A stretch of DNA of 64,000 nt from Nannocystis pusilla (GCF_049060185.1 NZ_JBMEQO010000002.1); one strand, 5' to 3'; positions 1 through 12,037 are shown, counted from the stretch's first letter. The notes: generated by a model from the letters alone, not told the origin. Numbers and translations are program-made.

Positions 1-1033
1 AGCACGTCGCGGGGATAGCCGCCGGTAGCGGTGAGGATCGGCCGCACTGCCGCGACCGGATCCTGGCCGAAGATTTGCTCGGGCTTTTCGAGCCGGCAGG
101 CGACGAGCTTGTACATCTTGTCGAGCCCGGCGACGAAGTCGTTGCCGTCGCGGTCGTGGATCTTGACCATCGGCAGGGTGAGCGGCTCACGGGCGAACAC
201 TGAGCCGAGCTGGGCAGTGCGGAAGCGCAGCCACACAGGGAAGGTGTAGATGACATGGCACGAGGGCAGGCGCAAGAAGTCGCCGTAGGCGACAAAGAGC
301 GCCTCGAGCGAGTTCTCGATCGACTCGCGTTGCGACTCGTTCATCGCGTCGATCTTCTCGAGGCCGTCGGCGATGACGATGAAGCGGTCGGCGCGGCTTC
401 CGACGGCTTTTGGATCCGCTTCAGCGAGCGGCCGATCTCTTCGTAGCACTCGCGCACGAAGTCCTGGAAGCGCTTGCGTAGGGCCTCTTCGATCTCGTCG
501 TGGATCGTGCGGTTGTTGCGGAGCTCGAGCATCAGGTTGAGGCCGTAGAGCTCGAACTTGGGCTGGAGGTGCGCGCTGGTCGGCAGGAAGCGGCGGATGC
601 TGTCGAAGAACTGGCGCAGGTAGGTCTCGCCGGGCGGAGTCGCGGTCTTCTCGAGCTTGTCGGCCTCGCGGGCGACGCAATACGTGATGGCGCCGAGGAC
701 GTCGGTGACCGAGACCGGGAAGAAGCGGTGGATGTACTCCTCGCAATTGATATAGAGGACGTAACCAGAGTCGGGAGGCGGATTGCTGTTGATCTGGCCG
801 GCCAGGCGCAAGAGCTCGGAGGTCTTGCCGGTGCCCGGAAAGCCGGTGAAGAGCTGGCAAGTCGGCGATTCGGCGTCGAAGATCGTGCGCCGGAGGGAAT
901 CGATGCAGGCTTGCTCGCCGCGGACCGAGGGATCCTTGTCGAACGGCACGTAGAGCGGTGAACCCGCTTCCAGCGGCTTCTGCGGGTCGCACTGCGCGAT
1001 CAGGCGCCGGATGATGCTGCGGTCGACGGTCAT
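1..1033 (-). CDS. P-loop NTPase (AAA/STAND-like ATPase), C-terminal portion runs off the window start; apparent frameshift near 425
   Basis: ORF 341..1033 has Walker A GFPGTGKTSELL. After a frame switch near 420-430 the protein continues plausibly (Walker B-like DRFIVIADGLEKID ... GGYPRDVL) to position 1. The residues after the switch in the original frame are low-complexity SSSSPTASRRSTR. Confidence 0.5.
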
Positions 1034-1084
1034 GGGGCGGCTGGACGGTACGATGGAAAGCGCGCGGACGCCAATCGCGCCATG

Positions 1085-8713: not shown

Positions 8714-10209
8714 GTGACGCCCAACGTGGCCGAGCTCGAGCGCCAGGTCGGCAGCCTGGCGCTGTCGCAGATCGACGGCGCCGGCGCGCTGGCGATGATG
8801 CGCGCGCTGGTGTGGCAGGGGATCCTGGCGCGCCTCGGCGTGGCCGTGCCGCTGGTGATCCTGCACGACCTCGGCTGCCTGATCACTGGGCCTCGGCGGC
8901 CCGGGCCCGGTGGTCAAGGGCATCGCCGAGTCGGAGCTGTGCGAGGCCTGGCGCGGGCTGCTCGTCGAGCTCGGCGAGAGCGACCTGGTGCGCGCGCAGG
9001 CCGGCTGGAAGCACCGCGACCAGATGATCGGCGTGGTCCTGGCGCGGGTGTTCGCGCCGGTGGTGCCGCAGCTGCCCGACGACGTGCGGGTGCTGCGGCC
9101 GATCGAGCTGCCGGTCGACGCGGTCCACTACGCGAAGGTCGAGCCGAGCTCGGCGTACACCCGCTACGACCAGAGGCAGACGATCGCGTGGCTGCAGACG
9201 CTCACGACCCACCGGCTGCTGCCGCTGCTGGCGGTCGAGCAGATCGACGTCGACGCGCTGCGCCTGTTCGGCCTGTTCCGCGGCGGGCCCGGCGAGGCGG
9301 CCGCGGGCGTCGACCTGGCCGACCTCTACAACGTGATGGTCAGCCCGGCGCTGGCCGACGTGATCGACTTCTCGATGGAGCTCCTGCCGTCGATCCTCGA
9401 GGTCAAGCGCGAGGCCGGCCAGCAGGTGTTCTCGATCGACGGCTACGCGTCCATCGAGCGCTTCGGCGGGGTCGACGACCTCGAGCTGTCGCAGCTCGCC
9501 TACGACGAAGACATCTTCGAACAGAAGTTCATCGACGACGAGCTGTTCTACTTCACCCACGAGAAGCAGGTCGAGAACGAGCACCGCACCCACTACGTGC
9601 TGGTCGACGGCTCGGCGTCGATGCGCGGCGTGCGGAGGTGTTCGCCCGCGGCCTGGCGCTGGCGCTGTGCAAGCGGCTGGCGCTGCTCGGCGAGCACGTG
9701 ATCCTGCGCTTCTTCGACAGCCGCCTGTACGAGGGCGTCAAGGTCGGCGCGCAGGGCCACGCCGAGGTGCCCTACGTGCTGCAGTTCCGCGCCGAGCACG
9801 GCCGCAACTACGCCCGCGTGATCCGCCAGATCAACGCCGAGCTGTCGGCCCGCGCCGCTCGGGCGGCGGCGGCGGCGGCAAGGTGCTGGTCTACCTGCTG
9901 ACCCACGGCGAGTGCCAGCTGCCGCCCGACGACGTGGCCGCCCTGGCCGCGCGCGCGCCGATCTACGGGGTGTTCATCTTGCCGAGCTCGGGCGTGCTCG
10001 ACCTCGGCTACCTCGACCTGTTCTACCGCGTGCACGTGATCGACGACCAGGCGATAAGCCACGGCCGCCGGGCCCAGCGCGCCCGCCAGATCATCAGCGA
10101 CGTCGAGGCCGGCCATCGCCAGGCCCAGCCGACCCGGCGCAAGACGGGTGCCCCGAAGACCATGTCCGTCGGGACAGGGTTGAAGGGACAGGGGCGGAGG
10201 CGGCGGTGA
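8714..10209 (+). CDS. von Willebrand factor A (VWA) domain protein, ViaA-like partner of the MoxR ATPase; frameshifts ~8890, ~9625, ~9860
   Basis: MIDAS motif HYVLVDGSASMRG (DxSxS). After frame switches come ARGLALALCKRLALLGEHVILRFFD and GGGGKVLVYLLTHGEC, typical of VWA beta strands. The gene lies immediately downstream of the MoxR ATPase. Confidence 0.65.
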
Positions 10210-12037
10210 TCGACACCAACGTGCTGTGGATCCGCGCCGAGGGGCGCTGCGGGCCGGCCGCCACGCCGACGCCCAGATCTACCTGCGCCAGCTGGTCCAG
10301 GTGGTCGACCGCATCGACTTCGAGTACGAGGAGTGGCTGCGCGCCTACGTCGACTCGCTGCGCGCGACCGGCAACTGGGGCGAGGGCATGGCCTGCCTGT
10401 CGTACCTTGGCGCGCGCGAGATGCCGGGGCCCGACATCATGCGGCTGTACGCGCAGCGGGCCCAGGCCGGCGACGCCGACGCGATCCGCACGGTGCGCCT
10501 GTACGCCATCTACCTGTCGCGCGCAGGCCAGCACCGCCCGGCGGCCTCGTGGTTCGAGCTCGGCGGGATGCCGGTGCACCGGGCGATCGCGCTCGAGCGC
10601 GCCGGCGACGACGGGGCCGCGTCGCAGCTGTGGGCCCGCATGCTCGCCGGCGACGCGCTGGTCGACCGCGACTACGAGCGCGCGCTGATGAAGATCAACT
10701 ACGCGCTGTGCCTGCGCCGCCTCGGCCACGAGCGCGCCCGCCAGGCCATCGCCGACGCGACCACCAGCGTCGAGGAGGTCGCGGACGCGTTCGAGAGCGA
10801 GGGCCTGCGCGAGCGCGCGTTCGACTGCTACCAGCTGATCGCCCGCCTCGGCTCGGAGACGCGGGCGTTCGAGAACGTGGCCGAGGGCTACCTCAACAGC
10901 GTCCGGATCCTCCGCGACGACGGGCTCAAGCTCGACGCGCTGCGCCTGTACGAGACGTTCATCGCCATGGCCCGCGAGGCCGGCGAGTTCCACGCGGTGG
11001 CGTCGATCCTGCGCGAGGCCGCCGACTACTGCACCCGCTCGGGCCTGCCGTACGCCGACGACCTGCGCTGGCGCAGCGCGGAGGCGTGGATCAAGGCGGC
11101 GACCGAGGCGCTGGCCGCCGGCCACCCGCCGCAGATCATCGAGAACGCGTGCCTGGCCGCGGCCGAGGCGTTCGCGTCGGTGCGGGCGTTCCGCCAGGTC
11201 GCCGAGTCGTACCGCAAGATCACCACGCTCGACCTGCCGGCCAAGAACCGCGAGCGCGCGCTGCGGCTGATCCGTCGCCTCGGCGACCAACCCCAGGACG
11301 CGCCGCGGCCGATGCCGGTGCCCGAGTTCCTGCGCCAGCTGCCCGACTACGAGGAGGTCTGGTACGTCGACCTGGCCGAGTGGGAGCTCGGCGGCGACCC
11401 GGCGCTGGTGGCCGCCGGCGTGATGGCCGACCGCCGCTTCCCCGACTACGTGCGCCGCCACGCGCTGCTGCTGGTGCTCGAGCTCGAGCGCCGCGGCCAG
11501 GCGGTGCCGCCGCTCGAGATCGTGAAGAGCCTGGCGGTGGTCCGCGCCTACCCGGTGATCGCCGGCCTCGAGGCGATGTACCGCCACGGCGACGCGTCGC
11601 TGCGCGAGTCGGTGGCGGCGGCGATGGGGGCGCTCCGCTTCAAGCGCAGCTTCGGCCTGGTGTCGCAGGCGCTGCGCGACCCGAGCGCGCCGGTCCGCAA
11701 GGCCGCGGCGGCCTCGGTCGAGCGGCTGGTGTTCCCCCACGCGTTCGAGCCGCTGCGCCGGATCTTCGAGGCCCGCGACCTGCCCGACCCGGAGGCAGCC
11801 CGCAAGGCCGCCCTGACGGCCATCGGCAAGATCGGCAGCGTCGAGGCGCTCGACTTCCTGTGCGACCGCCTCCGCGAGGGCGAGCAGCCGTTCGTCAAGG
11901 TCGCCAGCACCGCCATCAGCGAGCTGCCCAACTCGGAGCTCCTGCCGTACCTGCGCCGCCAGATCGAGTTCGTGCCGGCCGAGCACCGCGCGGTCCTCGA
12001 GGACACCGCGCAGCGGCTCGAGCACAGGCTTCGCTGA
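10207..12037 (+). CDS. TPR-like / HEAT-repeat (PBS-lyase-type) protein
   Basis: A GTG at 10207 overlaps the upstream stop and a GTG at 10226 is in the long frame. The C-terminus carries repeated HEAT-like units: DASLRESVAAAMGAL, DPSAPVRKAAAASVERL, DPEAARKAALTAIGKIGSVEALDFL. Confidence 0.6.

Follow-up and report, generated by a model that had tools for sequence, protein, structure and literature searches.

The window investigated in this study, a stretch of 64,000 nucleotides from Nannocystis pusilla (NZ_JBMEQO010000002.1) with a GC content of 70-78%, contains in its first 12,037 nucleotides a locus that combines a MoxR-type AAA+ ATPase and its vWA partner with a HEAT-repeat protein, two proteins that we refer to as A and B, an FHA-domain protein and a Hanks-type Ser/Thr kinase (STK). 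These seven genes form a conserved block in the Nannocystaceae, which in our view is reasonably likely to constitute one functional unit.

Two divergent operons

The genes are organized in two divergent operons around a spacer of 470 bp (4139-4608), as reflected in a plot of the GC content at third codon positions (GC3) and in the translations. On the minus strand, the gene of the TPR-FHA protein is followed by that of the kinase and of a P-loop NTPase, and on the plus strand the genes of A, B, the bpMoxR-type ATPase, the vWA protein and the TPR/HEAT protein succeed each other with spacings of -4, +2, +3 and -4 nucleotides. As already noted in a preliminary description of this DNA, start and stop codons overlap in GTGA sequences at 6213-6216 (A/B) and 10206-10209 (vWA/HEAT), and the five plus-strand genes are probably translationally coupled. 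The same description had listed eight consecutive genes; eight genes do lie within 1..12037, but its enumeration of them was wrong and they are not co-directional, with the left three residing on the minus strand. The raw open reading frames (ORFs) of the window were misleading as gene models and were replaced by models rebuilt from the intact genes of Nannocystis sp. RBIL2 (locus L006, about 98% nucleotide identity to the window), which were mapped onto the window by tblastn, with frames taken from the GC3 plot. The resulting features are:

1..1033, minus strand: P-loop NTPase, mapped by tblastn to 1033-3 and covering residues 1 to about 344 of 448, cut by the left edge
1085..2429, minus strand: Hanks-type Ser/Thr kinase, 448 amino acids (Pkinase 2e-33; tblastn mapping)
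about 2430..2799: repeat-rich non-coding spacer of 370 bp between the stop of the FHA gene and the start of the kinase gene (Tandem Repeats Finder)
2800..4138, minus strand: TPR-like and FHA protein, 448 amino acids (FHA PF00498 3.3e-8 on the intact orthologue)
4139..4608: divergent intergenic region (gene map)
4609..6216, plus strand: protein A, 535 amino acids, intact in the window, putative divergent member of the fvmX7/bpX2 superfamily
6213..7405, plus strand: protein B, 398 amino acids, frameshifts at 6796, 6862, 7395 and 7399
7408..8594, plus strand: bpMoxR-type AAA+ ATPase, 395 amino acids (bpMoxR 2e-77), frameshift at 8112
8598..10209, plus strand: vWA protein, 537 amino acids, frameshifts at 8630, 8887, 9635 and 9849
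10206..12037, plus strand: putative scaffold with SNAP-like TPR and PBS-type HEAT repeats, 610 amino acids, frameshift at 10241

The divergent region 4139..4608 presumably holds the promoters of both operons; no sigma-70 or sigma-54 promoter consensus, intrinsic terminator or Rfam family was detected in 1-13 kb. Convincing transmembrane segments are absent from all seven proteins of the block, which are predicted to be cytoplasmic.

Families and motifs of the encoded proteins

Several features named in the preliminary description are confirmed, with a C-terminal Pkinase domain at 2e-33, an FHA domain at 3e-8, bpMoxR at 2e-77, HEAT_2 at 3e-13, the MIDAS sequence DGSAS in the vWA protein and the Walker A motif GFPGTGKT in the NTPase. 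The MoxR protein matches the family PF20030 (bpMoxR) with 259 bits compared to a cut-off of 27, and it also matches AAA_5 (3e-26) and AAA_lid_8 (3e-12). Its Walker A motif GPPGTAKS (about 7561-7584) represents a P-loop of the GxxxTAKS type, and the Walker B motif VVFLDE is found at about 7747-7764. When compared to the RavA model NF010054, the protein obtains 200 bits (7e-59) relative to an equivalog cut-off of 681, with only residues 11-302 being aligned.

The vWA protein is predicted to consist of a helical N-terminal region and a divergent C-terminal vWA domain, whose motifs can be read in the sequence in the canonical order, as HYVLVDGSASM, RFFDS, LLTHGE and YGVFILP. The MIDAS sequence DGSAS (about 9606-9620) is invariant (D337, S341); in place of the usual TDG the protein has THG, whose T436 and H437 are invariant as well. 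Twelve of 16 orthologues match the ivWA family (best 2.7e-5) and four of 16 match ivWA-helical_N (best 0.032), with the L006 protein reaching only 11.6 bits against ivWA at a gathering score of 35. The general VWA families of Pfam yielded no match better than 0.15, and a search of PDB sequences with the vWA profile hidden Markov model (HMM) yielded none. At the level of sequence, no propeller, WD40, Kelch or PQQ match is found in any of the 16 orthologues, and the protein ends about 100 residues past the THG strand. In the protein encoded at the right end of the block, HEAT_2 is matched in all 18 orthologues (best 1e-25) and SNAP-like TPR repeats in 10 of 18, and its profile matches alphaRep/PBS-HEAT structures at 4e-36. 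The protein is devoid of hydrophobic segments (maximum Kyte-Doolittle value over 19 residues, KD19, of 1.4). A match to CATASP in three of 18 members (E=0.0024) was judged to be noise.

Protein A is 100% identical to the N. pusilla protein P0001 and has itself no significant Pfam match (bpX2 E=0.034); a match to SAV_915 (E=0.004) was regarded as noise. A profile derived from 20 orthologues and searched against 1.84 billion representatives retrieved 403 clusters, 278 of them at E<=1e-10, which contain mostly full-length proteins of about 500 amino acids. Among 42 distant homologues, 21 match bpX2 (best 4.6e-8), many carrying a precomputed PF19918 annotation, and 16 match fvmX7 (best 1.9e-15), with P0246 scoring 56 bits compared to a cut-off of 24. 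Since distant relatives of A match both families, this transitive link assigns A as a divergent member of the fvmX7/bpX2 superfamily of accessory proteins, which is associated with the FtsH and beta-propeller ternary systems described below. An AlphaFold2 model of A (pLDDT 77) displays tandem ferredoxin-like alpha+beta domains and a disordered C-terminal tail. In residues 461-535 (5989-6216), a stretch of about 55 residues that is predicted to be disordered precedes the invariant sequence N-x-x-L-x-R-F-A-L-W-G-F-G, which persists as FPLWG in homologues at about 30% identity. This C-terminal peptide, RFxLWGF, is a candidate for a short linear docking motif, as is an invariant acidic loop with the sequence APFGYD for a docking element.

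Protein B is predicted as an all-alpha protein with a small beta-sheet (pLDDT 85, pTM 0.84). It matches no Pfam family, either in the Nannocystaceae or in distant homologues, and no fold. The UniRef label 'DUF547' that is attached to some orthologues is unsupported by any Pfam match, and a match to fvmX1 in one of 22 members (E=0.0035) was dismissed as noise. The suggestion of the preliminary description that the two unassigned proteins would provide variable or effector components is not supported, as both are conserved, with ratios of non-synonymous to synonymous substitution (dN/dS) of 0.10-0.22, and neither of them contains a toxin or enzyme signature.

The kinase combines a TPR-like helical N-terminal region with a C-terminal Pkinase domain (PF00069), in which the motifs VAIK (VAIKRL), HRDIKPANI (about 1456-1430, including the catalytic Asn) and DFG (DFGLA) are preserved. 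Judged by these motifs, the kinase is catalytically intact. In the neighbouring protein, the FHA domain (about 3150-3370) scores 34.3 bits against PF00498 in the intact orthologue, compared to a cut-off of 20.7, and it contains the phosphothreonine-binding motifs GR (GRSPD) and SxxH (SREHA). The spacer separating both genes contains in the window eight copies of a 14-bp unit, CGAAAGGGCAGGTC, and 2.8 copies of a 40-bp unit. In L006 (7615-8068), the equivalent region carries 4.6 copies of a 43-bp unit and 6.5 copies of the 14-bp unit and differs from the window by many indels, and in other genera the spacer is only about 100 bp long. It is thus a variable-number repeat located within the operon.

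Conservation in the Nannocystaceae and beyond

A genome scan seeded with A identified 40 loci in 40 assemblies, one in each, all from Nannocystaceae or close metagenome-assembled genomes (MAGs) and including Nannocystis, Enhygromyxa and Plesiocystis. In every Nannocystaceae locus with sufficient flanking sequence, the order and orientation of the genes is the same, with STK←FHA diverging from A→B→MoxR→vWA→HEAT. Where the flank suffices for an assessment, B is present in 37/37 loci, MoxR in 31/31, the vWA protein in 27/27, HEAT in 26/26, FHA in 28/28 and the kinase in 27/27. The lowest identities to the L006 proteins amount to 51% for A, 35% for B, 33% for FHA, 70% for MoxR, 56% for the vWA protein and 49% for HEAT. 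The flanking genes are common only within Nannocystis and differ between genera, and it is the block rather than the surrounding region that is the conserved entity. Among Nannocystis species, pairwise dN/dS values of 0.03-0.24 for all seven genes indicate purifying selection, with the HEAT protein being the most constrained member (0.03-0.07). The preliminary description had named in advance a comparison of gene neighbourhoods as a check of its proposal, and in this comparison the MoxR-vWA pair is accompanied by the genes of A, B, HEAT, FHA and STK in each assessable Nannocystaceae locus and in many other Myxococcota.

The P-loop NTPase, which had been included in the proposed system, is not part of this block and is absent from most orthologous loci. 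Its gene is located 51 nucleotides downstream of the kinase and is found only in the window, in L005 (N. punicea) and in L006 among the 40 loci, and it is missing in the N. pusilla locus L001. Its scores remain below the thresholds of the respective families, with 25.5 compared to 32.6 for AAA_16, 23.5 compared to 26.7 for NACHT and 22 compared to 75 for the Sll1717-family ATPases. Since the gene is restricted to three assemblies and has a GC content of 64%, compared to about 75% elsewhere in the locus, it looks like a lineage-specific accessory gene that was recently inserted in a strain-variable manner.

Outside the family, the trio A-B-MoxR, usually accompanied by the vWA and HEAT genes and often by FHA and STK, is found in other Myxococcota. 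The order A-B-MoxR(-vWA-HEAT) with a divergent FHA-STK pair is encountered in Sandaracinaceae, in other Polyangia and Myxococcales MAGs and in metagenome contigs, and the pair recurs in its divergent position in the distant loci L041, L045, L092, L093, L101 and L107. In six contigs with distant homologues of A, a homologue of B and a bpMoxR gene always adjoin A; two of the six also contain vWA (about 40% identity) and HEAT (36-39%) genes and two the divergent FHA-STK pair. Among 80 metagenome loci seeded with an alignment of MoxR, 27 contain enough upstream sequence, and A is located upstream in 16 of them. In the loci carrying A, the vWA gene is present in 9/12, HEAT in 7/10, FHA in 8/14 and STK in 8/14. 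A substantial share of the distant loci is incomplete, so that only in the Nannocystaceae are all seven genes fixed as a unit. Some distant operons contain insertions, which in L057 (2835-8369) encode an extracytoplasmic function (ECF) sigma factor, a caspase (Peptidase_C14) and a Kelch beta-propeller, in L045 (12625-15457) an ECF sigma factor and a response regulator, and in L092 (10594-12057) and L101 (7883-9166) a DNA-methylase-like protein placed between MoxR and vWA. Solitary MoxR genes were also found (L072-L078, L083-L086, L118), whose neighbours encode an amidase, MscS, a LuxR-type regulator, TsaB, Lon and Na/H exchangers; the genes of A, B, the vWA protein and HEAT are all absent within 10 kb.

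Downstream of 12037, the window encodes a Cys-rich protein, a methyltransferase, an S9 peptidase, a TPR protein, radical-SAM proteins and a transglutaminase elicitor, which are syntenic within Nannocystis only and unrelated to the locus. The first of these (12125-12889, plus strand) is a protein of 254 amino acids, in which a linker rich in Thr and Gly is combined with four Cys-rich repeats (GDPC..C....C..G.CYDGSEGDPC); it has no Pfam match and resembles the Cys-rich repeats of secreted proteins and lipoproteins of myxobacteria. Further downstream, a TPR protein of 686 amino acids is followed at 23797-27513 by a divergent pair of radical-SAM proteins of about 630 amino acids each, which are likewise unrelated.

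Relation to known MoxR-vWA systems and possible role

Four classes of MoxR-vWA ternary systems have been defined (Kaur, Burroughs, Iyer and Aravind, eLife 2020, PMC7159879). In the beta-propeller class, the vWA protein carries a propeller, and the third component contains a hypervariable N-terminus, a membrane segment, TPR repeats and a propeller; the class 'shows no conventional effector modules' (PMC7159879). In the FtsH class, the third component contains two FtsH-type AAA+ domains and is accompanied by specific effectors, which are either NEFF1, a radical-SAM/peptide module or a caspase with a set for the conjugation of ubiquitin-like (Ubl) proteins (PMC7159879). The MoxR proteins of both classes contain the GxxxTAKS P-loop, and their vWA domains have often lost the aspartates of the MIDAS (PMC7159879).

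The link of the locus to these systems, which had been drawn from the raw sequence, is upheld by the bpMoxR match with its GxxxTAKS P-loop, by the ivWA matches in 12/16 vWA orthologues and by the relationship of distant A homologues to fvmX7 and bpX2. With the beta-propeller class the locus shares the type of MoxR protein, the divergent, putative vWA domain, a repeat-containing third component, linked proteins of unassigned fold, with relatives of A matching bpX2, the lack of a conventional effector and the occurrence in a multicellular lineage. In contrast to that class, the vWA protein is devoid of a C-terminal propeller, and the third component is a soluble and highly conserved TPR/HEAT protein without a variable N-terminus, membrane segment or propeller; a fixed divergent operon of FHA protein and Ser/Thr kinase is added, and B has no counterpart family. 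With the simple type of FtsH systems (ivWA, ivWA-helical_N, fvmX1-7), it shares the predicted helical region preceding the putative vWA domain with its ivWA and ivWA-helical_N matches, the match of A relatives to fvmX7 (1.9e-15), the GxxxTAKS MoxR and the occurrence in deltaproteobacteria/Myxococcota. However, a HEAT/TPR protein occupies the position of the third component, and the seven-gene block contains neither NEFF1, a radical-SAM/peptide effector, a caspase nor a Ubl-conjugation module. No protein with a double FtsH-type AAA+ domain was detected within 10 kb in L041 and L043-L046, in the scanned ORFs of L057, L076 and L118, or in the window at 1-34 kb, these being the regions scanned among the fetched loci.

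Since the defining features of either class are not found, while a bpMoxR, a putative ivWA-like vWA and an fvmX7/bpX2 accessory protein are shared with these systems, the locus is, as judged from its sequence, an undescribed variant of the ternary systems that is intermediate between the FtsH and beta-propeller classes and a member of neither. The proposal that this architecture had not been described before has held up, as the text of Kaur et al. (2020) contains in these classes no HEAT/TPR third component, no B-like protein and no fixed FHA-kinase operon, and as neither this architecture nor the Pfam names concerned turned up in searches of literature and supplements. Similarly, no system-level match was obtained in NCBIfam, and PADLOC-DB 2.0 returned only generic kinase-domain matches (mad6, PD-T4-6, PglW) and a weak HEAT-ARM match, with none for A, B, MoxR, vWA or FHA.

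Similarities exist also to the chaperone pairs RavA-ViaA, CbbQ-CbbO, NorQ-NorD and CoxD-CoxE, which consist of a MoxR and a vWA protein. As in these, the MoxR gene directly precedes that of a vWA partner with a MIDAS, and an ATP-driven remodelling of clients is likely shared. Unlike in these pairs, no client enzyme such as fumarate reductase/LdcI, Rubisco, nitric oxide reductase (NOR) or CO dehydrogenase is linked, the MoxR protein stays far below the RavA equivalog cut-off, and three extra partners and a kinase/FHA pair are added. Hanks kinases are paired with FHA proteins also in PpkA-Fha1 of the type VI secretion system and in PknB-GarA/FhaA. In the present locus, a Hanks kinase with intact motifs equally adjoins an FHA reader beside a machine that it presumably regulates, but both proteins have TPR-like helical N-termini and lack transmembrane or PASTA sensor domains, and the machine is a MoxR-vWA assembly, a type that is not known to be regulated in this way.

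Taken together, we consider it reasonably likely that the seven genes encode one functional unit, a variant of the MoxR-vWA ternary systems that is specific to Myxococcota and is wired to Ser/Thr phospho-signalling in the Nannocystaceae. This assignment draws on the observed composition and tight packing of the genes, their conservation as a block, purifying selection, intact motifs and the lack of transmembrane segments and recognizable effectors, and we infer a physical complex, a direction of signalling and an output. By analogy, the locus probably acts as a phospho-gated remodelling switch. In such a mechanism, modelled on RavA-ViaA, CbbQ-CbbO and NorQ-NorD and on the thresholding model proposed by Kaur et al. 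(2020), the plus-strand products would form a cytoplasmic assembly of a hexameric bpMoxR, the vWA protein as adaptor, the TPR/HEAT protein as scaffold, and A and B. Powered by ATP, the MoxR hexamer would either remodel or set free a partner that is held via the MIDAS of the vWA domain, with the HEAT/TPR protein supporting the assembly, or its client, and with A and B serving as clients, adaptors or scaffold. The kinase might phosphorylate one of the components, and docking of the FHA protein on the phosphothreonine would gate the switch.

Several observations weigh against this proposal. The assignment of the vWA domain relies on sub-threshold ivWA matches and motifs, with no HMM match in PDB sequences; about 30% of the distant A-B-MoxR loci contain no adjacent vWA and HEAT genes, and about 45% no FHA and STK genes; eleven MoxR homologues of 55-57% identity are solitary among housekeeping genes; the caspase/Kelch, methylase-like and ECF-sigma insertions suit a conflict or stress role better than housekeeping; and a literature search found no experimental work on any member.

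With respect to the role of such a unit, the pattern in the Nannocystaceae tends to favour a conserved function in regulation or assembly over a rapidly evolving immune system, because the block is single-copy, present in every locus of the family examined, non-diversifying and effector-less, whereas the pedigree of the family and the insertions in distant variants favour a role in conflict or stress. We tentatively entertain the idea that the ternary chassis became fixed in Myxococcota as a core, vertically inherited and effector-less cytoplasmic machine, whose output would be cellular instead of immune, with A and B as dedicated clients. This output could consist in assembling or disassembling a lineage-specific complex under phospho-regulation, and control of a transcriptional programme is hinted at by the ECF sigma and response-regulator insertions in L045 and L057.

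Alternatively, the locus could be a conflict system directed against phages or other parasites, in which the MoxR-vWA pair sets a threshold, the kinase and FHA protein sense infection and A and/or B act as non-conventional effector by containment, dominant-negative interference or cell suicide. The families bpMoxR, ivWA and fvmX7/bpX2 were all defined from presumed conflict systems enriched in multicellular bacteria (Kaur et al., 2020), the lack of conventional effector modules is a property also of the published beta-propeller class, caspase and Kelch (L057), DNA-methylase-like (L092, L101) and ECF-sigma (L045, L057) genes are inserted in distant operons, and a variable STAND-like NTPase is placed beside the kinase in some Nannocystis strains. 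Such a role is at odds with a single-copy block that is found in all sampled Nannocystaceae genera, whose sequence identities follow taxonomy, which suggests vertical inheritance, and whose genes are all under purifying selection without any hypervariable region. It is also at odds with the lack of a PADLOC defence model beyond generic kinase-domain matches and of any nuclease, peptidase, pore or NAD-targeting domain. We thus regard an anti-invader function as a possible but doubtful explanation.

It appears very improbable that the locus is a decaying remnant, in which the frameshifts in the FHA, STK, B, MoxR, vWA and HEAT genes would be real and the system non-functional in this strain. In the alignment with L006, at least 20 frame-breaking single-base indels are found in 12 kb. 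The FHA gene is interrupted by indels at seven positions; that of the kinase contains a 2-nt deletion at 2100, and another frameshift is located at 407 in the NTPase. The protein of 199 amino acids that had been assigned to 6213..6812 is in fact the N-terminal half of B, cut short by the frameshifts at 6796 and 6862, and in the ORF 6790..8238 the C-terminus of B is joined to MoxR through two more, at 7395 and 7399. The same fused ORF has been deposited for N. pusilla as P0176, a 480-residue 'AAA family ATPase', which could speak for genuine decay but which appears to be a chimera of the B C-terminus and the MoxR N-terminus created by frameshifts. However, nearly all indels are deletions in G/C or A runs, and outside of the one repeat-rich spacer most differences between both sequences consist of one nucleotide missing from the window. 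Similar deletions are found at the same density in the adjacent genes of the methyltransferase and the S9 peptidase (13027, 14510, 14589, 15508), with the latter being broken into the ORFs 13786-15027 and 14561-15562. Between indels, the encoded proteins are 99-100% identical to those of L006 (100% for MoxR and HEAT), and all genes of the locus are intact in L001-L006, comprising another N. pusilla strain (L001, Na p29) and five other species. Because the indels are of the homopolymer type, are found also in neighbouring genes and meet intact ORFs in relatives, the frameshifts are, on the basis of these alignments, assembly errors rather than a sign of pseudogenisation. As a practical consequence, systematic homopolymer deletions corrupt the gene models of this Nannocystis assembly, as exemplified by the B/MoxR chimera P0176, and gene models across the whole assembly are unreliable.

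A fortuitous adjacency of a MoxR-vWA pair with unrelated kinase, FHA and hypothetical genes, for which one could invoke that kinases and FHA proteins number in the hundreds in myxobacteria, making chance neighbours of this kind common, and that FHA and STK are missing from some distant loci, retains scarcely any probability, as it is already contradicted by the identical gene order and orientation in all assessable Nannocystaceae loci (26/26 to 37/37) despite differing flanks, by an FHA-STK pair that recurs, equally in divergent position, in distant Myxococcota, and by plus-strand genes that overlap by 4 nt or are separated by gaps of 2-3 nt.

MoxR-vWA pairs are widespread and few of them have a known client, and the ternary systems described by Kaur et al. 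(2020) are so far entirely computational. In this respect, the locus is conceptually tractable, with a fixed set of seven genes in one copy per genome, intact catalytic motifs, two partner proteins that lack a known fold and a kinase/FHA pair as obvious regulatory input. Conflict systems would be expected to diversify, whereas this locus is strictly conserved and under purifying selection, and it thus offers a test of whether the chassis is primarily immune or serves regulation or housekeeping in multicellular bacteria. If the proposed role as a cellular machine were true, it would provide the first example in which a Hanks kinase and an FHA protein are shown to gate a MoxR-vWA system.

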